Shown piece after piece: positions 2,303 through 64,000 of a stretch of 64,000 bases of DNA (positions are counted from its first letter, which is position 1; each line of letters starts with the position of its first letter). This DNA comes from Xylographa opegraphella (Eukaryota), in NCBI GenBank assembly GCA_022813865.1, contig JALDZX010000035.1:1-64000 (forward strand), read 5' to 3'. The notes below the pieces were generated by a model. The model saw nothing but the letters and a program-made list of their open reading frames with translations. It ran no database searches and was not told where the DNA came from. Made by a program: the position numbers and the translations under genes.

Positions 2303-2388
2303 TGTGACGGCTATGACATCAGTCACAGGTAATAGGGGTCGGGCTGGATCAGGACTAGCACCTTTAGTATATAGTCTCGCCCATGGAG
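2303..2388 (-). mobile_element. Second, inverted copy of the LTR-like repeat, truncated by the gap
   Basis: 86 bp matching the reverse complement of 108-193 with about 7 mismatches by manual alignment. Confidence 0.75.
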
Positions 2389-2398
2389 NNNNNNNNNN
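2389..2398. other. Assembly gap (10 N)
   Basis: Run of N; the true length is unknown. Confidence 1.
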
Positions 2399-2561
2399 CG
2401 CTTCTCCATCTTAATCTGGGTTGAAATCGTCCACCTAAAGCTTACGTTCTAGGCGTGCTTGTGGGGTGAGTTGATGAGCCGTAACACTAGAAGCAGGTTA
2501 GCGTCTATGTTGCCTGCAGGCAACATAGAGGGCATTCTGCCAGGCAACGCTATTTCCAACA
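2399..2561. mobile_element. Unmutated LTR-like fragment of a different repeat
   Basis: Normal-GC island after the gap, ending sharply at ...TTCCAACA before AT-rich DNA. Contains a perfect 26-bp palindrome at 2504-2529. Confidence 0.4.
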
Positions 2562-4325
2562 TATTTATTAATTTTATATGAATATAAATTTTTATGAATT
2601 TTATACGAGAGAAATTTATATATATATTTATATATATATATATAAACTAAATAGCCGTTAATAAAATATATAAAAATTCGTAATTTTTTTTACGTTTTTC
2701 GTACGTTCGATCTATATACACTTTGTTAATATTATATCGTTATAATTACTTTCGTTCCCCTGACTTCTTTTATATTTTATAAAATTCGTTTTTAAAAATC
2801 GCTTTTTTCGAATTTAATAAAATGTTAATTTTACGTATTTTATATTTTGGTTAAAAAGGGCCTGATATGTAATAATTAATTTACGTTTAACGATATTAGA
2901 TATTTATTTATTATATATCGATAATAATAAATTAATAAATATTGTAAAATCGTATACGAATCGTAATTAATGCGTTTATTTATTTATTTAATATTTTCTA
3001 TATTTATATAAAACTCGTAACGAGGCTTTATTATTCGAAATTTAAATAAAAATCGCGTTTTCTTTTAATTACGTTAAATGATTATTAAAATAAACGATTA
3101 TTAAAATAAACGATCATTAAAATAAACGATTATTAAAATGAATGATTATTAAAATCAACGATTATTTAAAATAAACGATTATTAAAATAAGCGATTATTA
3201 AAAAAACGATTAATAAAATAAACGATTTTTTATATTTTATATTTCTATAATTCTTTCAAATCGATTGTTTTAATTACTTTACGCTTATCATATTAAAATC
3301 GCAGGTTAAAATAACGTAAATTCCATATTAAATACTGCGTAAAACTCGATATCAAAATAATAATCTCGCTTTCCTTGATTACCTTAATTAATTATTAAAA
3401 TAAAATAATTAATTTCTTACGTTTTAAATAAATATAAATTTTTATACTTGATTATTGTATAAAATTTTTGATTCATTATTTCGCGTAATTTCAACAACGT
3501 TTATTTTACGACAAAATTTATATTTTATATTTATATATATATAATTTTTTTATATATAAAAATAGCATTTAACGCGTATTTTACATAATTTACGATTATT
3601 ATTATATTTATATTATAAAATAAAAGTTCTACGTTTTATTATATTTTGTTATTATTATTTAATTACTGCGATTATGTTTTTTATCTGCGCTTCGCGTAAT
3701 TCTCGATCAGTATTTAATTTTTATTAAAATAAATAATAATTCTTAGTACCATACAAAAAGATATTGCTATGCTGGGAATTACAATTAATTATAAATGATT
3801 CATTACGTATTAATATAATATAAATTTTAAACGGCGCTAAAAACGTATACAAAACAATTTAAATATGATTCAATTTTTAAATGATCGAAAATTAATTAAA
3901 TTTACTACGAGATTTCGAGCGACGGTTAAAATATTAATATATACAAAATCGTTAAAATAATTTTTAATGATAAAAATATTTCTTTACAAAAGCGATTAAA
4001 TTAATAAATAAATTAATATAAATATATAAAATAACGTAATCGCAAAGATAAATATCGTTTACAAATCAAAAAATACTTTTCTCTTTTAAAAATTATATTT
4101 ATATAATTATTAATTAAATTCCTTGATCAATCGATTAAAATTGATGTTTCAAAAATGTATAAATATTGTTATTAATATTTATATAATTATCTCGCTAAAT
4201 TTAAATATATAAATTAAAATATAATTTTCTCAACATTTTTAATAATATTTATATCAAAATCATTATAAATTAAAAATTTGAATCTTATGAATTAAATTTT
4301 AAGTTTAATTTCTTCTAAATAAAAC
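2562..4325. repeat. RIP-like AT-rich relic, second block
   Basis: Same composition as 194-2302, with an abrupt return to normal GC near 4326. Confidence 0.8.
3081..3227 (+). repeat. 16-bp minisatellite, consensus ATTATTAAAATAAACG, about 9 copies
   Basis: Tandem units read directly, with scattered substitutions and indels. Confidence 0.85.
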
Positions 4326-33422: not shown

Positions 33423-34250
33423 CTAATCTTGTGGCGCATCAGTCAGCGGTACGTACATTACCCCATAAGTCTTCTGTTTCTCAATACTTCCATCAGCCTT
33501 CCTGTCAATCACCCATATGTTTTGCGAGAATCTATCACCAACGGGAACGAACATCCTGAAGCAGACCCGAAGTCGTTAGTTGCTCAGTAAATGTAAGCTT
33601 CGTGATATCTCACCTCCCAGGCGACTTGAGTTGCTCCACTAGGCTTCCGTGAGCTTCTACTGCAGCTGCCCCGACATGTATAGCATCGTACGGTCCTCCC
33701 GCAGGCCATCCCTTACGTCCATCGGCCTTAATAAATTGTACTCGTCCAGAGGCCAACAGCTCTTTCCCCTCGGCATTACGACCCATATTACGAGTTGCTA
33801 GGTCAACCAGACCCTGGATATGGTCTACCCCTATCACTTTCCCATCAGGTTCTACTAGATTTGCAAGGACGTGGGTCAGGTAGCCAGAACCACAGCCAAC
33901 ATCGAGTACCTTTGAATTGGGGTGAAGAAACTGAAGGAGAGACTCAGAAGCAGAGGCATGCATATGGGGTGCAGAAATTGTAGCTGACATTCCGATTGAT
34001 TGAGGAGAATCTTGGTATGGAAGCTCAGGGGCATAATGAGCTCGATCTACCTATATAGAAAGGCGTCAGCAGCTTTCCAACCGATAGAAGTACATGAACA
34101 GTAGTGAGCATGAGCTGCAGTGATACTAGTCATGGAATGGGCTTCTACGTTGAGCATAGCCTTCCTAACTCTATCCGACTTGATCAGACCATTCTCAGCA
34201 AGATTCGCGATCAACCCTGCATTGGAGGAACCAGAGGATCTCCAAGCCAT
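33423..34250 (-). CDS. PCMT1: Protein-L-isoaspartate O-methyltransferase (PIMT), 3 exons
   Basis: [45 protein letters not shown] motifs. Confidence 0.95.
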
Positions 34251-42187: not shown

Positions 42188-42260
42188 GACGCTCTCTACC
42201 CGGACGCTCTCTACCCGACGACGCTCTCTACCCTACGACGCTCTCTACCCGAACGCTCCC
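42188..42260 (+). repeat. Tandem repeat GACGCTCTCTACCC x4 (plus a partial copy) just upstream of the TPS1 ATG
   Basis: Identical 14-mers at 42188, 42203, 42220 and 42237 with 1-3 nt spacers. Confidence 0.9.
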
Positions 42261-42277: not shown

Positions 42278-44103
42278 ATGCCTTCAGTCACAGCAGCTCC
42301 TAAGATGGACGGGCGACTTCTCCTCGTCTCGAATCGTTTGCCCCTCTCTATCAAACGATCCGAGGCTGGCACCTACGAATTATCTATGTCATCTGGGGGC
42401 CTGGTCAGCGGTCTCAGCGGTCTCGCCAAGTCTACTACCTTCCAATGGTATGGCTCTGCAGGCCTGGAAGTGCCCGAGAAGGACGCTGGTCCGCTTACCA
42501 AGCGCCTGAAGGACGAGTACAATGCTGTACCCGTCTTTATTGATCAAGATCTGGCGGAATTGCATTACAATGGTTTCTCAAGTACGTTTTCCTCAGAAAT
42601 TACGTTGATTCCTTGCTCAGCAACATCTAGATTCTATTCTTTGGCCTCTTTTCCATTATCATCCTGGCGAGATAACATTTGACGAATCCGCATGGAACGG
42701 TTACGAACAAACGAATCGTCTTTTCGCTAAAGCAATCGCTCGCGAAGTTCAGGACGGCGACCTCGTGTGGGTCCATGACTATCACTTGATGTTACTGCCG
42801 GCAATGCTCCGAGAGGAGATCGGCAAGACGAAGGCAAATGTCAAAATTGGCTTCTTTCTACATACACCCTTCCCTAGCAGTGAGATTTATCGTATCCTGC
42901 CCGTGCGGGACGAAATCCTTCTTGGCGTCCTTCACTGTGATCTTATTGGATTTCACACCTACGACTATGCTCGACACTTCCTAAGCAGTTGTTCGAGAAT
43001 CCTGTAAGTTCTACCTTCATTTCGAATTTATGCACAACGAATGAAAGACTCCGACGCTGAATATGCTCAGCGGTTTGGCTGCTACACCCAATGGTGTGGA
43101 GTTTCAAGGCAAAATTGTTAGTGTTGGCGCCTTCCCTATCGGCATTGACCCTGAAAAATTCACCGAGGGCCTCAAGGATACTAAGGTGCAGGAGCGTATC
43201 GCGACACTCGAACGCAAGTTCCAAGGTGTCAAGCTCATTGCGGGGGTTGATCGACTTGACTACATCAAAGGCGTACCCCAGAAACTACATGCATTGGAGG
43301 TTTTCCTCACCGAACACCCGGAATGGGTTGGTAAGGTTGTCCTTGTTCAGGTAGCTGTCCCGAGCCGGCAAGACGTTGAGGAGTACCAAAACTTGAGGGC
43401 TGTCGTAAATGAACTAGTAGGAAGAATCAATGGCAAATTTGGTATGGTTGACCATGTATCCGTTTAAAATAACTTGCTGATTCAAAAAGGCACTGTCGAG
43501 TTCATGCCGATACACTTTATGCACAAACAGGTGGAATTCGAGGAGCTCATCGCTCTATACGCAGTCTCTGACGTCTGCCTTGTTTCATCGACTCGTGACG
43601 GCATGAATCTTGTGTCGTACGAGTATATAGCATGTCAAAAAAAACGACATGGAGCTATGATTCTCTCAGAATTTACCGGCGCTGCCCAAAGCCTGAACGG
43701 TAGCCTCATCGTGAATCCATGGAATACCGAAGAATTAGCTGGTGCCATACACGATGCAGTCACTATGGGTGACGAGCAACGCTCTGTCAATTTTGAGAAG
43801 CTCGATAAGTACGTTCAAAAATATACTAGGTATGTATCGGTACTCGGCTCCATTTATGACACGGCCTGACGCGAACGTAGTGCATGGTGGGGCCAGTCTT
43901 TCGTTGCAGAATTGAACCGTATCTCTCAGCAAGCCGAGAAAAAAACGAAACGACGTGAGTCATTAGTGGACAGTCAGCCTAACACTGCAAACGCAGTTCC
44001 TTCGGTACAAGATGATATTAACGGCAATGACGCACCACATGGGAATGGTGCCAGCAGCAATGTTGCGGACAGGGTTACTGTCGATCGTGAATTGGAGTTG
44101 TAA
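42278..44103 (+). CDS. TPS1: Trehalose-6-phosphate synthase (GT20), 5 exons
   Basis: LLLVSNRLP, SSGGLVSGL, WVHDYHL, GFFLHTPFPSSEIYR, GVDRLDYIKG, STRDGMNLVSYEY. Confidence 0.97.
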
Positions 44104-45745
44104 CAGTGGGTCTGTACAATCGGAATGGATGATACCCTGGTTTACGGCTGCAGGAGCATAGGAGTTTCTGGACAAACGTAGCACTGCGGAGACTACGGAC
44201 ATGAGCTTGACGCTTCTCCACTTCTCGCTGCTGTGGATAGCATTGTGTTTTCTAGTTGACCGTCAGTGGTCTCGAATCGATAGTCATTTGTGAGGCTTTG
44301 TCATTCTCCGACCGTTCCTTCGGTTTACTGTCGAGAGGTAGGTCTTGACCCCTACTCAACCTCCTATGCCATACTGTAACTCGGTGCATTCGTCCAGATT
44401 TGTAGCTGTAACGTCATGATTTGATGATTTGAGTTCTCACGAGATGTTAGAAATAACACATGCTGTCCTCGTCTGGGGCGAAGACAGCGTCGAACTCTCA
44501 GTCCATTGTTTTCTTTGCGTCAATGATTTGATGTATCATCCCTTTTTACGGCACATGAGCCAGTCCCTTCAACAAATGACGATAAGTAAAGTGCATTTTG
44601 GGAAACGGACTGGATGCTGTTGTATTGTTGATGGATCGAAGCTTATACTGCGATTTCACGCCACTCAATTTTAACAGCATGCTTTTGAATCTTACGGTGG
44701 TACTATCACGAATCAAGACCATGGAACGGTCAACTTGTATTGTAGTGCAGCTGGATTTCCTGAAAATCTAATGTATCCCGCGTATACAAGTCCATCATGT
44801 TGCGCCTTTCACAAATCCTCGATTCGATGTTGAGAGCCATGCTCTGATGCATCCTCTTATTAATCCTTTCATTGATCTTCAACAATTCTAATTTTTATCG
44901 CGCAATTGCCACCATTGTGTCTTCTCTTCTTCCCTTTCCTCATTATTGCACCTATCCTCGCCGGATTGAAGAGCTTTGCTCAAGCAGGAACACGTGTGCG
45001 GGGAGGAAGCGATTTGCGAGCAGGAAGATCGTGAGAAGGAATCGTCTCCACGGAGGCAAACTAAACATGGCCAAGGGAAACTGAGCGTATGCGGAATTCT
45101 ATGCCTTGATCACGCTATATCAATAGCGCGGGGCGTGGACGAGGCGCCGGCAATGCATGTTCAGAGTTACAAGGATATATTAAAGCGAAAGACCCAATGG
45201 CGGCTTGATGAGATGCAGGGCTAGATCATAAATGAGAGACCGTGGATTGAGAAAGGGTCGAGATGCATCAGGAGGTCATATGGCAGCCAGCATTTGTTCG
45301 TTGACGGAAATGCAACCTTGGAGCCAAAGAAGACAGCGTTGTGGAAATATCAGGCAGGTAAATCTGGGATATATGGGCAAGAACTAAGGTGGCACACTTG
45401 AGGCACTTATGGGTGAAGGCAAGTGGAGCAAGGACTAGCAATGGCTGTGGAATTCAGCATCAAGGGACATACAGACAATAGGTCTATACTAACGTCTGAT
45501 GATCCCAATATATAAATGAAGTTCGTCTCATGTGATAGTTTGCTGTCCAAACAGCATTATGTGTTTCAGTACACTTGGCTCGTATGGAGTGTCTGCGTGC
45601 GAAAGAATAGCAAATAAGTCTAGCGAACCGGAACATGGTCCAAAGATAATGAGCGTGTGATAGGCTTGTGCGATAATCAAGATGTATATTGCATAACTGC
45701 GATGCACAAGTGATGGCGGAACAGAAACTCATGAACGATAAGTCC

Positions 45746-48700
45746 TCAACGTCCAAGATGCTTCGGATCCCAACTTCCAACAATAAAGGAGCCTGTTGGC
45801 GCCGTTGCCGTGTCTCCATCCGCCGATAGAAGAGACGCAGGGGTCTGAGGGACATTAGCGTCCAGTAATCAATGCGATATAAGGTAACCAAAAACTTACT
45901 AGCATCCCATTACGCACCCGATTCGACTCTGCACATATAGAGTCCACGAACGCGGAGTTCACCCCCTCCTCGCCTTCCAAATCCACATCTCCCAACACAT
46001 GCTCTCTTTCCGCCATATTGACTTGCTGTAACGCCTGTTCAAAGCGCTTCAGCAGGCTCTCTACCCGCTGCACAGAGATAAGATCTTTGTCAAACACCAC
46101 CTCCGTGTAGACGACGTTCTTCTTGATATCGCAGTCAATCCTGAAAGGCAATGCTAGCGCAAGCTCCGCCCACGTGAGTACCATGTCCACTTTGTCTCTG
46201 GGCTGGTCGTCCGCCAGTGGCGGGGCGATGTTAATTCGGATGGCGTGCTGGCAAGCAGTGCGGGTCTCGGTGCTGAGGTTGGCGATACCGGCAAAGCCGA
46301 GCTGTTCGAACGGCGTCATCGCGCTAAGCTGATGTTGGACGTGGGCGAGAAGAGAGTAGGTGGTCTGTAGGGGGTCGATGTGAACGTGAAGGGGCACAGC
46401 GGTGGTGGTTGGGGCGACGAGGTCTTCAATGAAAGGGACCGACGCGCTGCGGCCAGCACGGAGTATGTCGAGGACGACATCAGCGCAGGCGAGAGTACGG
46501 GAAAAGACGAGCGCCCAGGCGACTTCGATCTTAGTGGAGATAGTGATGCTGGAGCTGTGGGTGCGGGAGAGGGTGATGTAGCGCTTGAGCATGGAGTCCG
46601 GGAAGATACGGTGATTTGAGGGGATGGGAAATAGAGGCGCTGAGACGACGTTGGCGAGATGCGATTGCCAAAATTTATGGGCGGCGGGTTTATCCATATC
46701 GTGTAGGCTCTTGATGAAATGGTTAAATTTTGGGGGTGAAGTTATAGCTCGTCCGTGATGGTAAGCGTGGTCAAGGTGCTTGAAGAGGAGATAAAGAGAC
46801 CAGCCATCGTATGAAGAGTGTTGCATGGTGAAGACGAAGAAGCGTTTCCTTAAAGCTTCGTCGTCTACTATACAGAATCGTTGGAGACGTTCGCCAAGAC
46901 CAATAATGGCTGATCTGTCGGCTTCTAGGTAACACTTCAACGACGTGTGTTTTCGCCAGGCTATACCGCTTGCCATCGTTACTTGATAGTACCCCGATAT
47001 TGTGTGTATAATACAAGTCCGGAGAATATCATGAGTGGCCTCGACAGCCTCCCAAGCTGCACGGAATCTGTCTAAATCAAGGAATACCGGCAGAAAGTAA
47101 ACGATTTGCGCTTGATGCTCATTTGTGTTAATTCCGGCGCAGATCCAGTACTCCTGTTGAGGATTCACATGGTAAATATCTTCGATTCGGTCCTTGGAGA
47201 CCTTGCATTGGCTCATCGCTTCTGACAAAAGAGACTTCTTATGATCACCCAACAACGAAAAGGGAGCTATCTCCCAGGGGTGTTGTGAGGTGGTTTCCGA
47301 AGTCACCAAAGCCATTTCGGACAGTACCGGATGCTTGAAGATCTCATCCACGGTCAGAGACAAGCCGACTTTACGCGCAGATGCGACAAGTCGCATTGCC
47401 GTAATAGAATCGCCTCCCAGCTCAAAGAAATTATCTTCGATACCCATGTCTGAAATTTTGAGAAGCACCTTCCAGAGGTCATACAGCCTTCTTTCCATGG
47501 AGGTGGAAGGTTCGGTATGGTCGGTCTTTGGATTTCGAAAAGCTGCGATTTGGTCCAGAGATCGGCCGGCTACCAACTGCTGCAACTTCCTGCGATTTGT
47601 CTTGCCAGAGGTAGTGAGCGGAATACTTGAAATTGGGATGAATACCGACGGAACCATGTAGGAGGGCAGCACCGACGACATTTTACTCTTAATACCGGTT
47701 GTAACGGTATTAAGACGGTTGAGTTGTGCTGTAGAGCTTGCTATATCCTTCAAGCCACGATCTCTGCCATTGTCAACACCAACAGTCACAAAACATGCCA
47801 ACATCGGCTGCTCGTTAGGCATGATTACCACAGCGGTTACACCTACATCAGCAGGCAGGAATGCCCGAAGCTGATGCTCAATCTCGCCTAATTCGACTCT
47901 CTGGCCTCGTATCTTAACCTGTTGATCGTCTTTGCGGCCAATAAAACATATCGAGCCATCATGATGATATCGTGCCAGATCACCTGTCTTGTAGAACCGT
48001 CGTCTTAGTGCACCTCTAGAATTTGCTTTCACTATCCAGGTCGGATCCTCAACAAAGGCAGCTTTAGTCTGTGCCTCGTCGCTGAGATACCCACGTGCAA
48101 GAGTTGGCCCTTCAATCAAGATCTCACCGATCGCACCAACAGGCACCAAGCTGTTCCAATCTTCTGGATTAACAATCCAAACCAGAGCTCCAACCCCTCG
48201 TCCAATGATGGTGAAATCGTCCTGTCGCTTGACATCCGGTTGTCCGATACAGTAGATGGTGCATTCTGCAGGACCATACATGTTGATCAATGTAACGTGC
48301 TCCGCCCAACGCTCCACCACTTCTTTTGTCATTGGCTCGCCCGCGACCACCAAGACTTTGAGACTCTGGACATCTTCCGGTCGCAGCTGGCTTGCCACTG
48401 TTGATGTGAGACATGCCTGGTTGACCCTCTGTGACTGGATTGCTTCCACTAAGTTGTTCATTCTATCGTGTTCCGACGGTATACATACGCAGCCACCATG
48501 TATGAGGGTTACAAAAATGTCACTGAAGCTGATGTCAAAAGTGTAAGCAGCGAACTGCAGTATGCGGGAACTCGTATTGAGTTTGATCTTTCTGCCATGT
48601 TCTCGTGCACTGGTACAAAGAGCTTTATGCTCAATAACGATGCCTTTTGGTTTGCCAGTTGAACCACTCGTGAAGACGACAAAAGCTGCGTTGTTGGGTT

Positions 48701-51700
48701 GAGCCTTTGCGTTCATCCTTTCCTGATATTCGGAGATGTTGTCAAGCAAAGAAGGACCCACAATCAACACAGGCCCAATAGCACACAATGTTGGAGCAGT
48801 TGTCGCAGAGGTTAGAACTATGCCTGCACCGTTCGAGCCTAGATCTGCGACGATCGTCTTTTGACGGGTCACAGGATGTTTTGGATCCAAAGGTACGCAG
48901 GCTCCACCAGCTTTGAGAACCGCTAGCATCGCAATAATAGCCCAACGCGACTTCTCGAAGCAAATAGGAATTAGAGACTCCGGTCCTATGTTCATGTTTC
49001 TCGACAGGTGAAGCGCTAAACGCGATGAAAGCTCATCAAGCTGCCCATGGCTCAACTCGCCATCCCATGAAACTATTGCAGGATATTTGGGTCGAATATG
49101 TGCTTGCTCTTCAATGAGATTGTGCACACAAGCATTGTGGACTTCTGGAGTGTCGGAGTTCCATTCCATGACCTCTTTTACATCTGTCTGGTCAGCATCT
49201 TGGACTTCAGCAACTAGCATGACCGGATCTTCTCGGAAAAGCTTCTGCAGAATGCTTCCGAGTTGTCGAAAAATCCGCCGAACTTCTCGTTCGTTCAGGA
49301 TCTTATCATCAAACGTAGCATGCATGAGAATACTCTGATCATGAAGATTGCACTCCAAAGTCAAAGCATAATCCGTTGAAAGTGAAATGTCCTGATTCAT
49401 AAGTACGTCAAAATTGGGAGCGCTGGGTCCCGTTGATTGAATCACGAGAAGACTCCGGAAATCACAAGCTGCCTTGGCCTCAGCACTGAGATTTTTGATG
49501 TTTTGCAAACCAATCTGTTCGAATGGCACAATGTCAATATATTGTTGCTGGACGTTTCTAAGCAGCTCGGTCACCATCTGGTCGCGAAGGAACACTGTCC
49601 TGAAGGGTACAGTAACAATTGTCGGACCTACGATTCGCTCGATGCCAGGAATCGATGCCCCACGGCCGCTGAGAGTTGTGCCAGTGATCACATCTGTAGT
49701 GTTCGAATACATACCTAGCAACAAAGCCCATCCTGCTTGTATGACGGTTGCGCTCGTGATATTGGTTTGAGGTTTTCTCACGAAGGACATCTCATGCTTT
49801 ATCTTCCTGCTTGCAAGTGGCCGGTACAGCGATGATGGCAAGCGAGGAAAAGCCGGTGGCGGTGCATCGGTCAACCTTTGACCCCAAAATGATTTGCATG
49901 CTTCAACGTCCATGTCAGAAAGGTACTTCACGAAGCTGTTGTAACCTGCACCAGGTGCGGTCAAGCGTCCGGAATAAACTTGTTCAACAGAGGATATCAC
50001 TCTAGAGAGCGCCCACCCATCTATGATCGAGTGATGAACTGTCCAAACCAAGGTGTACTCCGAGCATACTGGCGATTGAATGATAGCAAACCGTGAGGGC
50101 GGCTGCCCCATAAGCATCTGAATCGTCTTGTCTTCTCTCAGATATGAATCGACGGATTTGTCTTTTATCAGTTGCCAATGAAGAGGCTCTTTCAGTACAG
50201 CTTGAAAGATATTTCCAGACGTATCCTCGAAGAACCGTGTTCGTAATATGGGATTCTGTGTAGCTACGGTACCCCATGCGGTTAAGAGCTTGCCATGCTC
50301 GATAGATGATGGTACCTTGTAGATTAATTGCATGATATAAGAATTAGACTCTTTCAATGATAGAGCCAAGAGGCTTTTCTGCATTTCCGTACATGGATAT
50401 ATGTCCTCCACGAGATCCGCGTGAATTTTACACTGCACACTTGCTTCATTTCTAAGGTCTTGAATAGTGAAGTTATCCGCTACCAGTGCGAATGGAGTGA
50501 TCTCATGCACTCCATTAAAGGATGAATCAAGTGACGATGTCACTTGTGACATTTCGGACAGGATTGGATGGCTGAAGATCGCTTGAATGGTCAGGTGTAA
50601 TTTCGCAGTACGTGCTAAGGCAACAAGTCCAATCGCGGCTACAGAATCACCTCCAAGCCAAAGGAAATTATCTTTCGGCCCCACAGAATTGGGATCGATC
50701 AACAGTACATCGGCCCAAAGATGCCTCATTTGTATTTCCATTGGTGTCAAGGCTGGGTGCTCCAAACATATAGCCTGAGTATCGCTTCTCGTTGCGAAGC
50801 TAGTGAGTTGCGGCAGCGTCAGCTTTGCGGATATGCTCCGCACTTCTTTGCGGTCCACTTTTCCAGAAACTGATAGAGGGACTCGTCGCAGAGGGACAAA
50901 GACTGATGGTATCGAATAAGTTGGTAATACAAGTGAGATATTGTCCTTGATGTGGCCCACCAGTATTGCCAGACGTTGCTGCTCTGATTCCGAAGTTACC
51001 AGTACAGGCTCCTTTCCTTCGTCCCAATCCAGATAGCCAAATGATTCAGTGGCTTCATGAGCGCGAAGAAATGCTATCAATGTTGGGACTTGAGGTTCGC
51101 CAGCAGGTGTTACCACCTCAACCACCAATTCTGCCATTCCTCCAATTTCTGAGACAATATTCCGTAAATGATGTTCTACCTCGCCTAGCTCCAGACGTTG
51201 ACCTCGAAGCTTCACTTGATGATCTATTCGTCCGACATATTTGATAGTTCCGTCCTCATTGTACTTGACCAAATCCCCTGTACGGTAAAGTCGAGAAGGA
51301 TCATGGATTTCGTGCTTCGCGAGCCATTGTGGGCTGTCTATGAATGCCTCTTTTGTCTTTATATTGTCGTTCAGGTAGCCTCTAGCCACGACGGGACCTT
51401 CAATAAGCAGTTCGCCAACCGTACCCACTGGAGCCAACATATTGAAGTCGTTTGCTTCAACAATCCACGCTCTTCCACTAATTGCTCTTCCTATATCCCC
51501 ATCGCCGGCTGTGTATTGACTTGTGTCCAAAGTGAAACATATCACACAACATTCAGTCGGCCCATAGGCCAGTATGAGTCTCAGCTTTTTAGCCCAGGTT
51601 CTGACTAAGGATGGAGGCAGACTTTCGCCACCAAGGATTATGGTGTCGAGTGTCATGAACCGTTCAAAGCGAAGATTGATGAGAAGCGAGGGGGTGAAGA

Positions 51701-52556
51701 ATGCACATGTGACTTGCATTGTGTTCATCGAACTCACAAGGTCGTTCAAGCGGTCCCAGTCGGAGGGGACGCAAACGCAGCCTCCAAATATTAGCGTGGT
51801 AATAATCTCAAGTATGCAGGCGTCAAAGACGTAAGATGCGAATTGCAGAACTCTTGGCTTGGACTCAAACCCCATAGCTGCCCCCCCATGAATTGAGCTT
51901 GTGGAAAGCTGCTCGTGCTCGATGACCACCCCCTTCGGCTCGCCCGTGCTGCCACTTGTGAATATGACATACGCAGCATTTCGCGGATTGGAAGTCTCTG
52001 ATCTTGGTAATCTCTTCTCAAGCTTGCCAAGACTGTTGTCATCTACTTCAAGGATGACATCAACCAGCCCTTCGCAAGTTCGTGCACATCCTTTGGATGC
52101 TAATACGCATGTGGCCCCAGTTTGACGAATTAGATTGCGCAATCGAGCTGTTGGCTGAGCGGGTTCAAGAGGTACGAAGGCTCCCCCGGCTTTGAGTACT
52201 GCCAACATGGCTATAACAGTGAATTTCGATTTCTCGAAACAGAGTGGGACAAGTATCTCAGGGCCAATTCCAAGAGCAACCAAGTGGTCTGCTAAACGAG
52301 ACGACATATTTTCAAGCTCATCGTAGGTCATGTCTCCATCCCACGAACAAATTGCCTGAGAATTGGGCTGATGAGTTGCTTGGGCTTCGATCAGAGAATG
52401 TGCTGAGGTGTTAATTTTCCTAGGCACAGCATGGTTCCACGCCCATATATGTTGCTCGTCTTCTGGGCTCAAATTCCTGGAATTCTTGGACGTCGTCCTC
52501 AAGAGGTAATGCATATCCTCGTCCTCTTCGTTGGAAGTGCCGTTCCCTGTGTGCAT
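45746..52556 (-). CDS. Bimodular non-ribosomal peptide synthetase, A-T-C-A-T-C(T)
   Basis: 2233-aa ORF with two A domains (FTSGSTGxPKG, YGPxE, YxTGD, SGK), two T domains (LGGDS), C1 HHSIIDG and terminal C QHSSYDG. A probable 55-nt last intron at 45845-45899 (GTAAGT...CTAAT...CAG) extends the CDS to a stop at 45746. Confidence 0.96.
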
Positions 52557-54157
52557 GTTTCTGCTTGTTTGCCAAGAGATGGAACTCGAAATGAGAGACT
52601 CTGGCAGTCAGTATTCCTGTGTTGGTTAAAAATAGTAGCTTTCACGTATTTACTACCAAGGTATGCATATTGAAGGTTCAAGAGGTCCTGGGACAAAAAC
52701 TGGATGTGTGCATGATTAATACTACAAGTAATGTAACGAGAAGAGTTCAGCTGTATTAATATGCCAGCACGGATACTAAAACAAGCAGATTCTCTCTGCT
52801 GGTATTCAAGCAAAAGGTAACGGGACCAATCGAGCGTATATCGTGCAAGGGAGGCGATCGTCGACCGAACCATTTGCCGCGACATCCATCTGTAGAAGCA
52901 CATGAAGAAGACACGGTACGAGGTCTGGACCCGTATAGCAAAACGTTCAAGCAGGGGCCAATGCCACTCAGGATACAATGCGAATTACCTCCGGATACTG
53001 TAGCTTTTGCCGTAGTGTGTGTACGTACGTTCATGTCAACGGAGTGGGGCGCAGCTTGGAATCCTCCAGCCAAGGATCAATTTCAAATCTGCCCTCTGGC
53101 CACACCCGGATCACACAGGTCCAGTCTAGATTGACTCTCAGGAGACAACAAGCGCGGCGAACAATGATCGCAGTGGAGATGTTCCAAACCTCCAAAGCAA
53201 ATGATTGGTAACGAATGGTTCTGGTATACCCTAGGCCTACCCACATATCAATCGATTGGAACATGTTCATCCTTTGCGTAAGAAGCCTGAAAGACCTGGC
53301 GTTGCGAAATGCCTTCCTGGAGTGGTAAGCTTCTCACGAAACTCAGGTATGGTAGTACCTTACCTATTAGACGAGGTCGGAGCCGATCCGTCGGTTGACC
53401 CGATGTGCGTCGCGCTAGCCTAAGCCCAATAAAGGATATTACGCGTCAACGCTAATTCGCACCTCGTTCAGTCGAGGCACAGCATTTGGAAGGCGTGTTT
53501 GGACTTTTCATTGGGCCAGTGCATCAGGAAGCTGGAGCAAGGGGATGTAAGCCCACTCGATATCCTCGGACTGAATCGCACACTATCTACCGCGAGATGA
53601 CCATGTATACATGACTGGGCATGTCCGCACAGATGAGCCGAATGAGTCAAGATTGTACTCGAATCCAGTATGAGTATCAACTCGCCAATCACACAGACTC
53701 AATGGCTCCCTCGGGCCTCGATGGAAGCTACTGTGCCGTTTGAATGACTCCATGCGCGGTAGTGTAAGCTCATGTTGTTCTTCCCATCATATTTGGGCGA
53801 CAGTTCGCGGCGCTGTGCCGTTGTCTGTGGAGCAAGGATGAGCAAGTATATCCCATCATCGACGGATCGCTGTAAGTGCCGTCGGCATCGTCGTCCCGGT
53901 TGAACGCCGCATAAGAACCAAAATGCAGTGTGTGCCACTAGCAGTGGAGGGATCGCTCCCCTGCGTAATAAGACCGAAGCCTGAATCTACTTGGCAGCTG
54001 ACGTTGCGGACATGTGTATTCCGTTCTGAAACTGATATCGTACAAGAGTAGCGCTGCTCAATGATACGGATCAAACGTCGGTCCAGCGAACTGTATCGTA
54101 CCATAACAACAAGACTTGTGAGGGTGTTAACAGTCGTTCTTCCTCCAGTAGTTTGCC

Positions 54158-55894
54158 ATGGAACAAGAACTCATTCACGAGATCAATCCTCTCCGGGAAA
54201 TTGAATTTGGAATCCCAGGAACTGAGGGTCGAAACTCTATAATGCGGGCTGATGCTGATAGCAGAAGCACGGAGCTCCAGATCGCAAAGCAAGAGCCATC
54301 CACAGGCCGTCTAGTACTGATCTTGGGAGGACTCTGGCTCGGAGTCCTCTTGGTAGCATTGGATGACACAATGCTGGCTACAATCAGCATCCCAATATCC
54401 GTTTCGTACAACTCTTTCTCGAAGCTCTCATGGATTCAGACAACGTTCCCCATTGGAGCGTCAGTATCACAGCCTCTCAGTGGACATTTGACCGATATCT
54501 ATGGGCGTCGAAAAGGGCTCATCGTTTGCTATGGCCTGTTTGCGATCGGAACTCTTTTGTGCGGACTTGCCCCCAACCTTGCCGTATTTCTCCTTGGCCG
54601 AATTATTGAAGGCTTAGGCGGAGGTGCGATTGTATCGATCACAGCTTTTGTGGAGACTGACTTGATGCCAATGAGGAAGAGAGCTCTCATTGAAGGCATG
54701 GTAATTAATTTTTTCGATTTTGTTTGATCTTAGTGGATCTCGAGCATTTAACATTTTGTATACTGATATTAGTAGGGAAATATTGCTTATGGAGTCACAT
54801 TAGCCCTTGGAGGTGTCTATGGTGGCGCCATAAATGAAGTCATCGGTTGGAAATGGGCCTTCCTCATCCAGCCAGGCATGATCCTCGTCGACGCCGCATT
54901 GGTATTTTTCGTTGTCCGAATACCTCAGCAAAAGGCGGACAGTTCTTTGCTGCGTCATATTGACTATATCGGTGGCACTAGCCTTGTACTTGCGATCGTC
55001 TTGCTACAAGTGGCACTGAACTCTGGCGGAACAGATATCGGTTGGGGGAGCCCAGTTGTGATTGTCTCGTTCATCGTAGCTGCAGTCAGCTTTGCTATGT
55101 TCATCTTTTGGGACTCCTTCCAAGCTAGCAACCCAGTCATACCAATCAGAGCCCTACTACAAAGAACGGTTGCCTCTGCACAGCTGAGTTTTCTCTTTGC
55201 CAGTGCCGCCAATGTCAGCATCATATTCTATGTGCCTATTTATCTCCAGGTTCTAGGATACTCGACCGGACAGAGCGGCCTCCGCTTTATCCCAATGGCT
55301 GTCGGTGTGGCTCTAAGTTCTTTTGGCATCGGATACCTTGTCAAGGTAACGGGGCGGTACTATCACATTAACATTCTCGTTCAACTATCGTCAACTTTGG
55401 GCGCGGTTCTCCTGTGTACAATGACGGAGACAACGCCATCGTGGCTTCCGTTCCTGTATCTTACACTCATCGGTGTTGGGACTGGCGGAGCATATGTTAC
55501 CCGGTTGATGGGGATTCTCAGCTCGGTGGACGAGCAGAATCAGGCTGTTATTCAAGGCGCATCATGGACGATCGAGTCGTTAGGCTTGGCGCTCGGGGTC
55601 ACCGTTGCCTCGACCGTCTTCCAGAAGACTTCCCTAAGCGACCTGCAAGTGCTTGTGGCAGGACAACCAGGTCTTCTTAATACCCTTACCACCGACTTCT
55701 CGTCTTTGCAGAGTCTCGGCGGGGGTGTAAAGCAGGCTGCCGTAGACGTTTACCTCAAAGCATTGCGGGCCGTTTTCCTCTTAGCAATGGCTGAGATGGT
55801 GGTAGCGGCTGGCTTGAGTTTCTTGATGAAAAACAACCAGCTGGTTGACGATCCGAAGGAGAAGACACCAGAAACAGAGATGAAAGAGATGTGA
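54158..55894 (+). CDS. MFS transporter, DHA2/14-TMS (Vba-like) type, 2 exons
   Basis: LVALDDTMLAT, motif A GHLTDIYGRRKG, GRIIEGLGGG, GWKWAF, IDYIG and many hydrophobic helices. Intron about 54701-54776. Confidence 0.93.
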
Positions 55895-57623
55895 AGATAT
55901 GGTATCGAACAAAGGCGTACCGTCTGATTAGTATACTATCAATTTTTCCTGATGCCGTCAGGCCACTCATAAAGATAGATATAAAAGCTATTTTAGCATA
56001 TAGTGAATGCAGAAGTCGCTAAACGGCGAATTCCTGATGCTCATTACATTTCCAGTCGTGGTCCAGTGATCTTTCATCATGAATCCGCTCGACTCATGAT
56101 GCAGACGCCGTGCCATGGCTAACCCTCCTAAAGCGTGACTTTTGAGATTCCGGTTTGTGACTTTGTCTCAGTCGAGGTAGAACGAGATAGCTTGCTAGAC
56201 CATGACACGGCTAGTCAGTGGCCGATACTGCTACTGTTACATAACACTATGGTTAGGGCCATTGCGGAGGCTGTTGGGTCCCACGATGTCATCTGAGTGA
56301 AGCTACCCGACAGCACTGTCGACCAAGGATCGTCGGTGGCGCAGCTCTCGCAACTGCTACGCCGCTGTCAGACTTGCAATGTTGCGCAGATACAACCTAT
56401 CCTGAGCCAAAGGTTCGAGCATCCTGCATCCCTGGACCGGAGGACAGAGGATAGTGGACACGACGTCCATGCAGGTGGAAGGCTACCGAGACAGCGCTCA
56501 GCACTAACAAACTGTCCGGCAGCATCATTATCCTACTATCCTACGATGTACGATGACCCACATGTTGTCCGGACGGCGCTGACGAGGAATCGTGCTTTGG
56601 AGTCCGAAGTCACAGAAGCCTTGAAGCTTCCCTTGGTCTGACCACGGCTCTACGAATCACCCGTCCTCCGGTATTATTTCCCGTCCTGAAAACAATGAGG
56701 TTTAGCGCGTCAGTTAGGACTAGGCCTAGTTTCTGGTGGTTTTGAAACTCGACTCACTGCATCCGAAGAGAATATACGGTCGCCCTTGCTACTCTTGTTC
56801 CAGAGATCCTCTCTACATCCCGATCCTCTGTGGCGACCAGGCGGGTAGGTCCGCTATGAGTCCCGACTTGGTCTACTGAGGCTTATTTGCCTGACCACTC
56901 CGAGGCGTGGGCAGTTGCAGAGGTCATGAGCTAAGACCACGCTGATGAGTTGGCATTTTGCAATCCTTCTTTTTTCCATCTAGCGCCTGCATGTTGACCT
57001 CGTTCTGATGATGGTGGGGTTGGGTGCAGTCCTGCACATCCAGGACTTACCCTGCAGACCACGAGTGCGCATGTCATGACTACCGACCTACCGTCGAGCG
57101 TCCCGCTCATTTCCCGTTGACAAGGAGCTGCATGCACGTCTGAGAAGGCTGGACTGCTACCTCAATATAGCTGCGTTATATACCCATGTCTCGACACACC
57201 AGTGCCGAGCGCTTTTGGCTGGCTCGATCGCACTGTGACTGTCACCATGGCTGTCACCCCTTGTCCAAAGACCTGGGTCCGTGGATATGCCCTCTAGAAG
57301 ATGGTCAGCACCAGCGTTCCCAGTAATGAATTCGAGGAAACTGTTCTCGACTTCATGAGAGACTGAGAATCGAACCGACACTCCCATCCGTTCATTGGCT
57401 ACAGTTGAACACGTGAGCTCCGTCTGCCTAGCCATATAGCCGATTTTTGCATTCTATACTAGCGTCAAGCAAGACCGAATCCATATACGTCGCCCTAGGG
57501 CTTTGAAGATCCATACTTCTCCAAAGATCCTCCTGTGATGCCAAGGTCTCGAGTGCATGGTGACCCCAATCTTAGGGTTCTCGTTCTTCCGAACAACACG
57601 GCCAGGGAGTGGAGTGGCAATGA

Positions 57624-57631
57624 TATAAATA
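57624..57631 (+). promoter_or_regulatory. TATA box of the dioxygenase gene
   Basis: TATAAATA about 130 bp upstream of ATG 57756. Confidence 0.5.
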
Positions 57632-57755
57632 TGTTCAATCCTCCAGCTTAGAAAAGAAAGCGGAACTACCTGAGTACCCAGACATTCTCAAGGCAGCAAT
57701 TGAAGGCTGTATCTGACATCATTGCCCCTTTCACAACCAGCCACATTCTTCCAAT

Positions 57756-59139
57756 ATGGTTTCCATACTCAAAACCCATACACCTCCAGCAAACCATGAA
57801 AGCTCCAACACGAGCACGAACCTCGACAAAGAGATTGTGAGCTATGATATCAACCTTCCTTACAGACCGCAATCAGCGATTGAGCAGGAGCAGGCTAGGC
57901 TCAGGACAGAGTATCCGGGCTATCTACCTCAATTCGACGATATCTGGTTTGACAAGCTCCCTGAGTTCGAATACCAGGATCCTGCACTGAGAGCTGACAA
58001 GCGGAAACCGAATCTTCTCACTCCGGGCGTGACGCTCCGTCATATCACGCCCAGAATGGGGACTGTGCTATTCGGACTCAAATTGAAAGAGCTTTCTGAT
58101 GCTGGCAAGGACGAGTTGGCTTTGCTCATTTCGGAGCGGAAGATCGTTGCCTTTAGAGAGCAGAAAGAATTCCTGCAAGCCGGCCCGCAATTTCAACAAG
58201 AGTTCATGGCACATTTCGGCAAGCCCAACTATCAACCTGTGACTGGCTCTATCAAAGGATACCCTGGGTTTCACATCATTCATCGGGATGGCAACCAAGC
58301 AGAGATCAAGAAGTTCTTCCAGCATAAGATGACATCCACCCTTTGGCATCAGGACGTAAGCTACGAGCTGCAACCGCCTGGTTATATCATGCTGGGTATT
58401 CTAGCGTGTCCGGATGTTGGCGGTGACACGGTGTTTGCTGACACTGCCGAAGCGTACAAGTACGACCCCTTTTTGAATTGAACGTGCCATTTATCGAAGT
58501 AAGAGGCAGCTGACTGATAGTTGTACAGCCGACTCTCACCGATTTTCCAGGACATGATCAGGAATTTGAAAGCTGCCCACACTTCTGAGAAAATGATCGG
58601 GTTCGCCCGAGCCAATGGCGGTCTCGTTCGCAAAGACCCCGTCACCAGTATACATCCTCTGGTACGGGTGCATCCGGTTACGGGAGAAAGATCAATATTC
58701 CTGAATGCTGAATTCGTGACCGGAATTGTTGGACTCAAAGATCAAGAATCTGATATGATGCTGAAGTTTCTAACGGATCACATTTGCATGGGACATGACT
58801 TCCAGGCAAGGGTACAATGGGAGAAGGACTCTGTTGTCATGATGGATGGGCGGAACACACTCCGTGAGTTTTCTGTTTTCGTCCCTTTCGAGAAGCACCA
58901 CTGATGTATCAATGCTAGATACTGCGACCGTCGACTATGACTCGACCGTCCAAGCCAGACATATTTTCAGGCTCGCCTCCATGACCGAGAAACCTATCCC
59001 TGTGGGAGGAGAAGGAGATAGTGTACTGAGATCAAATGGGTACAAGATCAATGGACATGCTAATAACGAACATCAAACACACGGACGTTCCTCGGACGGC
59101 TACATGCCTAACGGCCATACGTCGAGCGGCCACAGCTAG
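57756..59139 (+). CDS. TauD/TfdA-family Fe(II)/2-oxoglutarate dioxygenase, 3 exons
   Basis: WHQDVSYELQPPG (HxD), GGDTVFAD, HPLVRVHPVTGERSIF, MDGRNTL|HTA (distal His codon split by intron 58864-58918), RHIFR. First intron 58460-58528. Confidence 0.93.
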
Positions 59140-61499
59140 ATCTCCCGACCTAGCACGCAGTCTAGTCATCTGGCGACTCCATTATCCTCTGTGTCCTTCA
59201 GCGCTCGTACAATTCCCTCCAGCCCATGGACCTCTCCCACTTCCATCCACTCGCCAGAGCGTATTCAACAGCCCAGCTAGAGTCTCCTATGGGGCGAGTG
59301 TCTTGGTGCAGTAGATATACAGCCTTCAGGCTGCGTGAAGGTGGAGGAAAGTTCCATTTCTGACAAACGGCGACCATAGCTTCTGCTACAGCAGTGAATG
59401 TACATTTTCCACACTTGACGCTTGCGTGGTGCACCGTTTTTTCCCCTGCATCTCCGCTCTTTGTGCCCCAAAATCGATCTACTGCCTTCGCTATCAACTG
59501 AGAATGATATCTCTTGGTCCTAAACTTTGTACTTCGTCATTGGTCAAACGACCGGTTCTCTTCGGCCTCCAACTCGATCACAGATCGCTCCAGCTTTCTC
59601 CCAGTCCCTCCGCACCCGACTCCGTACCCACTCTGTCGTACCCCTATTTGCAACACAGGCAAAGCCCCGCGTCGTACCGAAGTCCGCTACTGTTGACCCC
59701 TATCCACCTCCCACAACGATCACTCCTACGGAAGTACCCCTGGGGACCGAACACGAAAAGGTCGGCCCATCACTCCCATTCTCCAACACAGGATTGGTCA
59801 TGGAGCCTGTTACCGGCGCAAAAACGGAATCCCAGCCCTCACGATACGGAGGTACAAGTAGGACATTCGAAGCCCCCACGACCCTCGAAGCAACTGCCTG
59901 CCCACGTAACCCGGTGGAAGTCCCTTTCCTGCACCTGGTATCCCGCCACGCCCTCCAATCGCGTTGATCCCGAGAACCGAACAGCGTGCCGCTCGTGGCA
60001 GGACGCGTCACCGCTACGACTCCTGTATCTAGATTGGGGGGGGGGGAGAGAGAGAGACAGAAAGAGAGTGAGAGAGAGGGAGTGGGGATTATCCAAAGGA
60101 CAGAGCCTATGAAATTGCCACCTCGTTCTATGCCAGCTTAGGGATGTATCTCGGCGGCCGGAAAAAGCTAGCAGCTCGCGTGAGATCGTGGAGCGTGTAC
60201 AGGCGTTCGTGGTGTGGCACAGGGGGCGTGTTCGGCCCCCGGTCGGTTGCCCGAGACGCTCTGGCGTGAGCCCTGGGCGTTTTGCGGCTGGCCTGGACGT
60301 GCGGTGTGGCTGGTACTGGGATGTGCGTATCTAGCGTTGTCCGGATGGCGGTGACGGAGGGTTTGGTCTGGAAGGGGAGGTACGATCCTTATTTTCAGGC
60401 GGCATTGCCGAGATGGTGTCAGGTGGAGTGAAGTCGGGATTCCCCAGACGCCGACGGCGCCGAGCCTTGTGTTCTCACTTGCAGGCATTTCGATCCTGCC
60501 GCGATCCTTCGCGCGCTGAAAAGGGGGTGGGGGGGAGGGGGGAGGTGTGGGACGCGGCTGAAGGGAGGGGAGGGGTGGTAGGGAGGTGTTCCTTTCATGA
60601 GGCTGGATAGGCGAATACGGTCATCAGAACGTGATGGTCGGACAAGGTGAGGGATGTGCTATGGCGGATTGGGCTATGGCTGCGTGGAGGGTGGGAGAGC
60701 GGTGTCGCCCGAGGGTCTGGTCTGATGTGACATGTCGCGCAGGAGGGACGATCCCTGGGACTTGGAAGGATGTCGTGCGACCGCACTTGGACTCCGTGTG
60801 ATGGGGTGGTTGAGCCGCTGGAGAAGGAGTTAGGGGAGGAGGGGCGGGGGCTGGGATGCGGTGTGGTGTGGTGTGGTGCGGTGGGTGGAAGCCGATTGCG
60901 AGAGATGGCTTCGGGTCCCGTGAATGGATGATTGTTTCTGCGGTCGAGGCCGGCAGATGTGGTCCAGGGTGGTTTTGGGTGTACGATCTCGGCTTGGGTG
61001 TGGGTGTTTGTGGCAGATGGAGGATATCGATCAGTTGGATGTACGTCAAGGCTTGTGATTGCTCTACATGCAATGTGGGAATCACAGCGACACTTCTAGG
61101 AGCCTGATGTTCTATAGTATCCTTCGTATTTTCGTGAGGCTCTTTCAAATAGCCTGCAGATGCTTGTGCGGTAAGGGGGCTTGTACAGCTTGAACTTGAG
61201 ATCCAGGGTGAAAAGTTGCCTTGAGCGGACTTTTCGCATCACGTATGGACACTGCCTGGGATATGTTGCGCTGAGAGCTTCTAGTGTGATGAAATATCGA
61301 TGTATCATATATTACAGTAGCCTCTTACTGTACCGAATTGATATCCTGCGTCCTAACGCGCTTCACGTCCATCACTTCGTCATCCATGACGCCGTGCCCT
61401 GAGCATCCACCTACCAGTAAAACTGCATCTTCTCCTGGCTGGATGACGAACGGTACTCAAAGACCGTGAATGCTAAAGATCTTGTCGCTGACCTTGGTC

Positions 61500-62030
61500 C
61501 TTACTGGTAAAGCATCACCCAAGTCAATCCAGCATCAGAAACGCTTGGCTGTAGATATCTCCTGACCGAGGCTTGAGGCGAACATTCCTGAAGGTTGAGT
61601 AGGCTGATACACAGCGTGTCTGCTCATAATACGCGGAATCGCGAAGGACCGCGAAGACTTTGTAGAGCCGCGAAGAGGTTACTCGTGATAGTATAGTCTG
61701 TAACATCGGCATGCAGTGGGCCCATGTATGCTCCGATGCCATGGATCCTGAGCTAGCTATCCTCCGGATGATTATCTTGATAATAGTGAATAAACGGCTC
61801 ACGCGGAGCTTGTACCCAAACATACAACACGGTCTCAAAGTTGAGTGCGTTGTCTATCTCCGCATGTAACAAGCGATAGCAGATAAAATCCTTACGACCT
61901 CGTCACACATAAAGAACAGCAAGTAGCGTGAGAGAGCAGAACCACGATATGTACATCAGCTAGACCAGCCTCCAGGACGAGAAATCCAAGGTCCCTCTCA
62001 GATACAAGCCACTTATACGGAAACGCTTTG
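61500..62030 (-). pseudogene. HET-domain (heterokaryon incompatibility, PF06985-like) pseudogene
   Basis: Manual translation: FPYKWLVSERDLGFLVLEAGLAD|DFICYRLLHAEIDNALNFETVLYVW...ITSNLFAALQSLRGPSRFRVL*ADTLCISLLNLQECSPQASV /frameshift/ GDIYSQAFLMLD*LG. This follows the HET consensus order YEALSYVWG, ITxNLxxAL, LWxDAICI, MGDIYSxA, WLG. Confidence 0.8.
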
Positions 62031-62711: not shown

Positions 62712-64000
62712 CTACCACCCCATCGCCCTCAACCCCGCAACTCCGACTCCTCCCCCCTCCCCCTCACCCTTTCCCCTCTGGCCCGCCAGCTCCAGTTGGA
62801 TGCCCCGATGCACATGGACCAACCAATCGACATAACTCTGCGCCTCGCCGTTCCGATCCTCGACCAGCAGTCGCGCGAACTCGTACTCGGCGCCATCGAG
62901 ACCCTGGCGCGCGAGCTGGAGGGTGAGGGCCTTGGAGCCACGAAGGCTGGCCCAGTAGGCGAGGATGTTGCGGGCCTGGCAGTTGAGGTGGGTGTCAAGC
63001 ACGGGCAGGGCGTTGAGGAACGGGTCGAGCGCCTGCAGGGACGTGGCGCTGGGGCCAAACAGGTCCTCGAGCAGGTTGGGCGACACTTGCGCGTGCAGCC
63101 AGAGCAGGCAGGTCTGCCCGTCGTCGACGAGGTAGGCGCCGCCGTCTTCGATGCGGGAGAAGGAGGCGCGGAGGGATGGGGGAACGAGGAAGTGGCCTGA
63201 GAGTGGGATTGTCTTAGTGGGGTCTGAGAATGGGGGTGTGGATGAGGACGGAGATGATATACCTGTTTCGGCGGAAGGGAAGCCGGATTCGGGTGGAAGG
63301 GAGTGGAGAGGGATGATGCGCGGGTAGAGCAGGAGGGACAGCTCGAGAGCGGAGGCGGATTTAAGGAGGCGCATGATGTAGGTGCGGCGATCGGAGGGTT
63401 CGGCGCCCGCTTGGAGGCGAACAGTGTGTCAGTAATAACGCACTTGATTGCAGGACATTCATGCTGGTAAACGGGAGGAAAGGACTACGGGAGAAGAAGT
63501 ACCTTTGAATGCTCGGCATTTGAGCAGGCCGAGGGTAAACATGCTGAACTCCTTGAGGTTCTCGGGAAGGACCAGCTGGCCTGGCGGATGTGAGCCGGAA
63601 AAGGCCTTTCGATAGCCAGCGAGAATGTCAATGGTCTTCTCGGTCAGAGCAGCTCGGATCTCTTTCAGGGTTCGCTCTGTCATTCGGGTAGCAGCTGAAC
63701 ATAATCTTAGCAGAATATCGAGCCCATTGATGTCCTTGACATTTACCTTCTTTCGCAATCAGATTGACGACGGCATCCTGGTCAATATACCTCATGCTTT
63801 CAATAGCGCCTTCACTGACGCTTGCTACAGTATTGGTACACCGGACTCGCCGCTCGCCATTCGCGGTAGTGTACAACAAAGCACATTGGAAATGCGCATC
63901 CAATTTCGCATCCAGTTTCCCGTCATAACTGAACATCACACCGAAAGCCTTGTCGGCGTCAATGGCGCCGAATTCAAGATCTGCGCCGAATGTATGCTGT
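62712..64000 (-). CDS. SEC24: COPII coat Sec24-family protein (Sec24C/D / Sfb3-like), 3' part; the gene continues beyond the window
   Basis: FQCALLYTTANGERRVRC, GQLVLPENLKEF, LYPRIIPLH, gelsolin-like GAYLVDDGQ, LVEDRNGEAQSYVDWL. Confidence 0.92.

Follow-up and report, generated by a model that had tools for sequence, protein, structure and literature searches.

What does a nonribosomal peptide synthetase (NRPS) make when it is accompanied by little more than an exporter and a dioxygenase, and do the three genes form a pathway at all? The question is raised by a 64,000-nucleotide stretch of the Xylographa opegraphella genome (GenBank assembly GCA_022813865.1, contig JALDZX010000035.1, positions 1 to 64,000; hereafter the window), in which positions 45,746 to 59,139 carry a bimodular NRPS with two rounds of adenylation, thiolation and condensation domains (A-T-C-A-T-C), a major facilitator superfamily (MFS) exporter and a TauD-family Fe(II)/2-oxoglutarate dioxygenase. 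A sequence-only reading of this DNA had proposed a minimal three-gene route to an oxidised cyclic dipeptide or similar product. Because the linkage of the trio is conserved in other fungi and a counterpart exists in Aspergillus niger, we consider it likely that the genes act as one real pathway, which probably makes and exports one small peptide. The account that we favour, at a probability of about 0.4 for the whole, is that a dipeptide would be released by an elongation-type C domain onto a small nucleophile, with the dioxygenase acting on a small anionic component and the product being exported.

A conserved three-gene unit

Linkage in other genomes was read from locus tags and from contigs of equal size rather than from the relatives' DNA, and relatives were taken from 120 of 418 TauD matches and 120 of 240 NRPS matches. 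The co-occurrence that a pathway calls for is borne out: the NRPS, MFS and TauD proteins have consecutive locus tags in X. soralifera (1141/1142/1143), X. pallens (1958/1957/1956) and Trapelia coarctata (6902/6903/6904). In X. trunciseda and X. bjoerkii the tags of NRPS and TauD differ by two; neighbouring tags connect MFS with TauD in X. parallela and, in Pyrenula, NRPS with MFS. Six more assemblies yield all three proteins from contigs of equal size (124640, 22587, 60134, 91441, 16488 and 3628741), with NRPS identity down to 49%; for the last of these, a 3.6 Mb contig, this represents co-location without demonstrating adjacency. Metagenome scans returned no trio locus, with TauD in 0 of 39 stretches, and none of 78 metagenomic NRPS loci had a TauD gene or a close orthologue. 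Mirror-tree correlations among ten trios (45 pairs) reached a Spearman coefficient of 0.70-0.72, a level that common ancestry alone would lead one to expect, and we do not read it as a sign of co-evolution.

The NRPS and its terminal condensation domain

The NRPS has a complete catalytic set in one intact frame, comprising the A3 loop, A4 Asp, A10 Lys, T-domain Ser and C-domain His, and Pfam detects no reductase or thioesterase domain. Its A-domain codes recur across the family: 25 of 34 domains in the A1 clade differ from DALFIGAVI by at most one residue, and 19 of 24 in the A2 clade have DISCVAMIY or DIGSVAMIY. This conservation indicates that the product is conserved as well. From code tables we take DALFIGAVI to stand for a branched-chain aliphatic residue (Leu, Ile or Val) and DISCVAMIY, with Tyr at position 331, presumably for a small one. 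Some members differ in A1, with DAIVIGTCV in P0136, P0140 and P0141, and DATK[M/V]GVVI, which has a pocket lysine, in P0169 and P0184, the former also lacking A2; by their codes, these branches suggest product variants. The C-terminal tail encoded by the last exon is absent from many other gene calls of the family.

The terminal C domain (C2) bears most directly on the proposal of FtmA/AnaPS-type release of a cyclic dipeptide. We built a tree of 280 C domains from the listed NRPS matches, a set chosen by similarity to C2 and to which FtmA and AnaPS do not belong. Terminal domains of the family make up a 39-tip clade (support 0.985) nested in a mostly internal clade of 224 tips (0.903), and 48 of the 56 domains outside the larger clade are terminal, many with the motif SHAQYDG. 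An IQ-TREE analysis of a random subsample likewise joined 15 family terminal domains with 30 internal ones (Shimodaira-Hasegawa-like approximate likelihood ratio test 98.3) to the exclusion of every sampled outside terminal domain. Matched against this C2, the structure of the TqaA C_T domain scores E 2e-5, ranking 11 of 17, while C1 of the same NRPS scores 4e-15, so that C2 is no closer to it than C1 is; as a calibration, a SHAQYDG terminal domain matched TqaA C_T at E 2.5e-37 and rank 1. By sequence, then, C2 falls among elongating C domains rather than with the TqaA-type C_T domain. The first His of HHxxxDG is replaced in the family's terminal domains by Gln, Ser, Asn or Asp and the second is kept, a trait of releasing domains.

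What this NRPS shares with FtmA and AnaPS is the pair of modules ending in a C domain. Its terminal C domain, however, is not TqaA-like, in a comparison that covered TqaA. The surroundings differ from the FtmA and AnaPS pathways too, in that no prenyltransferase, P450 or methyltransferase was found here and the oxygenase is of the TauD type. Release in the manner of FtmA and AnaPS thus has less support than the sequence-only reading gave it.

A dioxygenase from a widespread fungal subfamily

The dioxygenase belongs to the TauD/TfdA family (PF02668) by Pfam match, fold, HxD...H triad and 2-oxoglutarate-binding Arg; His198, Asp200, His347, Arg360 and Arg364, which make up the triad and both arginines, are conserved. 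A predicted model with a mean local confidence score (pLDDT) of 87 matches TauD and phenoxyalkanoate dioxygenases equally well, with a Foldseek E of 3e-23 to 1os7. Fold, triad and both arginines are common to the sulfonate/sulfate-ester dioxygenases E. coli TauD and AtsK and presumably yeast Jlp1, but identity is about 27%, three pocket positions are changed and the enzyme here is linked to an NRPS. In E. coli TauD, His70, Tyr73 and Asn95 presumably contact the taurine amine and Arg270 binds the anion; of these four, Arg alone is kept here, and the protein reaches 136 of 313 bits against the NCBIfam TauD equivalog model. Gln at the His70 position is subfamily-wide, being present in all 128 motif-matched sequences among 165 examined.

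Relatives at 58-68% identity occur, among the matches listed, in Helotiales, Eurotiales, Pezizales and basidiomycetes, where they are automatically named sulfonate dioxygenase, and the substrate loops are nearly the same as in relatives from Morchella, Mycena, Exidia and Aspergillus. By its residues, the dioxygenase seems to have been recruited without visible change to its pocket. With the pocket seemingly unchanged and the anion-binding Arg kept, a small anionic substrate would fit better than a neutral diketopiperazine. NRPS-linked copies fall in two separate subclades of a quick TauD tree. A recent bacterial origin was considered and rejected, the best bacterial relative having 34% identity (80 kept of at least 602).

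TauD-fold enzymes that make or modify an NRPS building block are familiar from bacterial pathways that combine an NRPS, such an enzyme and an exporter, AMB (AmbB/E, AmbC/D) and the ScoE isonitrile lipopeptides, to which this cluster is similar in that respect. It differs from them in having neither a thioesterase nor a stand-alone carrier, in that the bacterial relatives found for its dioxygenase reach at most 34%, and in its distant match to ScoE: E is 1.6e-6 against 4.9e-26 for TauD, and the ScoE-type model NF049937 gives 45.9 bits against a cut-off of 400. The enzyme ends in a disordered tail (59010-59139, plus strand) with repeated NGH units, which is expanded in X. soralifera.

The dioxygenase promoter contains no perfect site of the CYS3/MetR type, and one-mismatch sites number 29 against 26 expected. 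It has 11 ten-mers in common with the other promoter of the cluster, slightly above the roughly 5.7 expected by chance.

A counterpart in Aspergillus niger

The accessible part of PMC3527191 annotates An03g00650 as an NRPS, An03g00660 as tauD-like and An03g00670 as nopaline-dehydrogenase-like. An03g00680 is the MFS gene of this cluster, and the Aspergillus MFS relative begins with the same residues as the An03g00680 entry in a table of that paper. Identity to the window proteins is 46% over 2260 residues for the Aspergillus NRPS and 53% for the MFS protein. Several genomes of section Nigri encode the NRPS relative at an accession three away from that of the MFS relative, OJI84686/84689 and GFN13998/14001 being examples. 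Both A domains, the terminal C domain and the MFS protein group with Aspergillus proteins, placing the NRPS in the An03g00650-type family; the smallest A-domain nodes shared with Aspergillus are weak (0.45 and 0.53) and the enclosing nodes stand at 0.92-0.99.

An03g00650-An03g00680 thus resembles the Xylographa cluster in its A-T-C-A-T-C family, its codes (DALFIGAVA and DIGSVAMIY), its MFS family and the tauD-like gene inside it. It differs in gene order (NRPS, TauD, opine dehydrogenase, MFS), in the additional nopaline-dehydrogenase-like gene and in its terminal C motif, GSHASYDG; a six-frame Pfam scan found no opine dehydrogenase in the Xylographa island. Judging from gene order, An03g00650 is probably NRRL3_08729. 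NRRL3_08790, considered as a counterpart, has five modules and is the wrong gene; the Trichoderma PCA opine cluster and the tryptopine synthases proved unrelated.

After one day of carbon starvation, An03g00640, An03g00650, An03g00660, An03g00670 and An03g00690 rise 14, 2.8, 46, 2.0 and 14 fold, respectively, in the accessible rows of PMC3527191, which do not include An03g00680; the equal 14-fold induction is that of the cluster's neighbours, An03g00640 and An03g00690. An03g00640 is described in the accessible part of PMC6447509 as the manganese-responsive permease brsa-25, tied to citric-acid morphology.

A proposed pathway and its rivals

In the pathway that we favour, the residue loaded by A1 would be a branched-chain amino acid, that loaded by A2 would be small, and C1 would couple the two into a dipeptide. 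The terminal C domain, catalytically intact and of the elongation type, would then free the dipeptide through acyl transfer, in which a small, unbound amine or alcohol would most likely serve as acceptor, in place of the ring closure of C_T domains. The dioxygenase, drawn from its widespread sulfonate-dioxygenase-like subfamily, would oxidise a small anionic molecule such as an acid, a sulfonate or a sulfate ester, and this molecule might serve as a building block or as the acceptor, or might form the anionic terminus of the peptide once released. The DHA2-like exporter would pump out the product and probably also serve in self-protection; its best family match is TIGR00711 (EmrB/DHA2), at E 8e-44 and 150 of 230 bits against a model that is bacterial. 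In this account the intact genes, their catalytic residues, the conserved linkage and the relationships of the domains are observed, and the substrates, the mode of release, the step of the dioxygenase and the product are inferred.

Several observations weigh against this account. A-domain codes are poor predictors of fungal substrates, and neither DALFIGAVI nor DISCVAMIY was found in the literature searched. Seven unrelated terminal C domains are also placed among internal domains, and a second terminal domain from outside the large clade matches TqaA at no better than 7.6e-10, so that clade membership leaves the release chemistry unfixed. The TauD positions His70, Tyr73 and Asn95 are Gln, Thr and Ser here, and free taurine is therefore probably not the substrate. 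No TauD gene was seen beside the NRPS of Pyrenula, Ptychographa or Hyphodiscus among the TauD matches listed. An03g00660 is likened to the Xylographa dioxygenase by its annotation. Induction in A. niger is highly unequal, with means of 20 for the NRPS and 1526 for the TauD gene in the accessible part of PMC3527191, and in a second dataset An03g00650 stays at background while An03g00660 varies (PMC3722221, as far as accessible). With NRPS and TauD induction so uneven across two datasets, co-expression of the A. niger genes is weakly supported.

The main rival retains the cyclic product: the terminal C domain would close the dipeptide into a diketopiperazine, for example of a branched-chain residue with Ala or Gly, which the dioxygenase would hydroxylate or desaturate before export. 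The minimal A-T-C-A-T-C architecture without reductase or thioesterase, the loss of the first His with retention of the second and the conserved linkage of the trio are all in keeping with this, and dipeptidyl thioesters cyclise easily. We nevertheless judge it unlikely, given that C2 is no closer to the TqaA C_T domain than C1 and sits among elongating domains, and that the dioxygenase shows no remodelling of its pocket compared with relatives in fungi without a listed family NRPS; a neutral ring would also be a poor partner for the kept anion-binding Arg. With a pocket that looks unchanged from that of a broad fungal subfamily, an oxidised diketopiperazine is less well supported as the product than it had first appeared. 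If instead the NRPS and exporter alone were the pathway, the dioxygenase would be a sulfur-scavenging or housekeeping neighbour kept by synteny. The breadth of its subfamily across four fungal groups, the automatic naming as sulfonate dioxygenase, a promoter with a TATA box of its own, 1.9 kb away from the MFS gene, the near-chance sharing of promoter ten-mers and the uneven A. niger expression, as far as the sources can be read, all fit such a bystander. The tauD-like gene annotated inside the differently ordered A. niger cluster, the two subclades of NRPS-linked copies and one-mismatch CYS3/MetR-type sites at chance level argue the other way, and we hold this explanation to be improbable.

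A more elaborate chemistry can also be imagined, in which the dioxygenase cleaves the sulfonate of a peptidyl-aminoalkylsulfonate made by C2 to give a peptide aldehyde, or carries out a ScoE-like oxidation of an N-carboxyalkyl (opine-type) amino acid; in A. niger, the opine-dehydrogenase-like gene would supply such reactions or complete them. An elongation-type terminal C domain, a Jlp1/TauD-like enzyme that keeps the Arg and lacks the amine-contact residues of taurine binding, an exporter of the drug-efflux type and the annotated presence of An03g00670 in the A. niger cluster all leave room for it. The distant ScoE match and the lack of an opine dehydrogenase among the genes found in the Xylographa island speak against it, its basis is sequence comparison, and we regard it as very improbable. 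A related generalisation strikes us as a long shot, if a slightly better one: that throughout a family spanning Lecanoromycetes, Eurotiomycetes and probably Leotiomycetes and Sordariomycetes, an elongation-type C domain couples a dipeptide to a small sulfonate or acid acceptor and the dioxygenase converts the conjugate to a reactive compound that is exported, for instance a peptide aldehyde. If true, coupling followed by oxidative activation would be a new release-and-activation logic for fungi, common to lichens and A. niger.

Novelty and significance

The expectation that this combination matches no characterised cluster is supported as far as the literature covered goes. No characterisation of the cluster or of its A. 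niger counterpart was found in the literature, a coverage that excludes MIBiG and most subscription journals, and the trio is not described in the accessible parts of PMC5816093, PMC12006828, PMC12855858, PMC12536604, PMC12136951, PMC13062703 and PMC6447509. The combination is not unique to this genome, given the A. niger counterpart with its one extra enzyme. In the accessible part of PMC3689640, An03g00650 is listed solely as a predicted cluster, and in the accessible part of a 2025 curated table all four A-T-C-A-T-C synthetases of A. niger NRRL3 lack a product (PMC12368960). The family thus appears to be conserved and, in the literature covered, uncharacterised.

Slow growth rules out genetics in lichen fungi, which have been studied mostly for their polyketides. 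As the counterpart sits in A. niger, in which knockouts are routine, the product can be tested for directly. Identifying it would put a name to a metabolite of an organism used in food and enzyme production, and would supply the first known role both for a fungal TauD subfamily that is widespread and for a terminal C domain that does not belong to the TqaA C_T group. Orphan clusters are common, with 73 of 86 A. niger clusters lacking a product in the accessible part of PMC12368960, which tempers this significance; an atypical release domain, wide conservation and testability in A. niger set the present one apart.

Gene models and surroundings

Spliced models of the three genes equal the NCBI proteins of X. 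opegraphella letter for letter, and Pfam assigns them two A, two T and two C domains (NRPS), MFS_1 (exporter) and TauD (dioxygenase). An intact bimodular NRPS divergent from an MFS gene across some 1.6 kb, and an intact TauD-family gene with a TATA box, had both been read from the letters and both are confirmed. The MFS gene and the dioxygenase gene are 1860 bp apart, and the TATA box is the sole plus-strand TATAWAW match from 55987 to the dioxygenase ATG.

Features of the locus in the window, with strand
Feature	Position	Strand	Remarks
Bimodular NRPS, A-T-C-A-T-C, MMC26_005081	52556-45900 + 45844-45746	-	2251 residues; one GT-AG intron, 45845-45899; no internal stops
A1 domain	50787..52424	-	code DALFIGAVI(K)
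T1 phosphopantetheine site, Ser638	50643..50645	-	GGDS; invariant in 17/17 aligned family members
C1 domain	49167..50423	-	canonical HHSIIDG
A2 domain	47532..49154	-	code DISCVAMIY(K)
T2 phosphopantetheine site, Ser1717	47406..47408	-	invariant in 17/17
Terminal C domain	45987..47189	-	QHSSYDG; His1913 invariant in 17/17
Small last NRPS exon	45746..45844	-	C-terminal tail; core conserved in Xylographa, Trapelia, Ptychographa and Hyphodiscus proteins
NRPS-MFS divergent spacer	52557..54157		1601 bp; no Pfam family in six frames
DHA2/EmrB-like MFS exporter, MMC26_005082	54158-54700 + 54776-55895	+	553 residues; intron 54701-54775
TATA box, TATAAAT	57624-57630	+	126 bp upstream of dioxygenase ATG
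TauD-family Fe(II)/2-oxoglutarate dioxygenase, MMC26_005083	57756-58459, 58529-58863, 58919-59139	+	419 residues; introns 58460-58528, 58864-58918
Left flank: trehalose-6-phosphate synthase TPS1 (GT20)	42300..43990 (approximate limits)	+	housekeeping
Right flank: Sec24-like gene	62715..64000	-	housekeeping; extends past window end

Pfam scans of all four intergenic stretches in six frames, stop codons being treated as X, were blank in all 24 frames, and for this reason we regard the island as having no detectable transcription factor, P450, prenyltransferase or methyltransferase gene, in agreement with the first inspection. The closest methyltransferase, a protein-L-isoaspartate O-methyltransferase (PCMT; 33610-34050, minus strand), is a housekeeping gene beyond TPS1 and outside the island, and the remaining genes of the window that Pfam can name are all housekeeping. 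A further Pfam scan of intergenic sub-stretches at E up to 1 was blank in 11 of 12, the twelfth giving a chance-level match at E 0.14, and repeats in the spacers are at a chance-like level. GC content at third codon positions is 0.50-0.57 in the cluster genes, inside the range of 0.43-0.67 in neighbouring genes.

A pseudogene had also been reported in the island. Frameshifted fragments at 61400-61764 (minus strand) resemble a HET domain by eye and have no Pfam match, which leaves that claim without Pfam support. Downstream of the NRPS, long and nearly open frames at 44840-45500 (plus strand), also with no Pfam match, could be a short gene or what remains of one. G-rich and GA-rich tracts with strong GC skew lie to the right of the dioxygenase gene, at 60030-60900, and upstream of TPS1 a 14-15 bp unit is present in about four tandem copies (42200-42260). 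At the far left of the window, positions 1-4200 form an AT-rich block (GC 0.22), depleted in CpA/TpG with an index of 0.77, that resembles a repeat decayed by repeat-induced point mutation.

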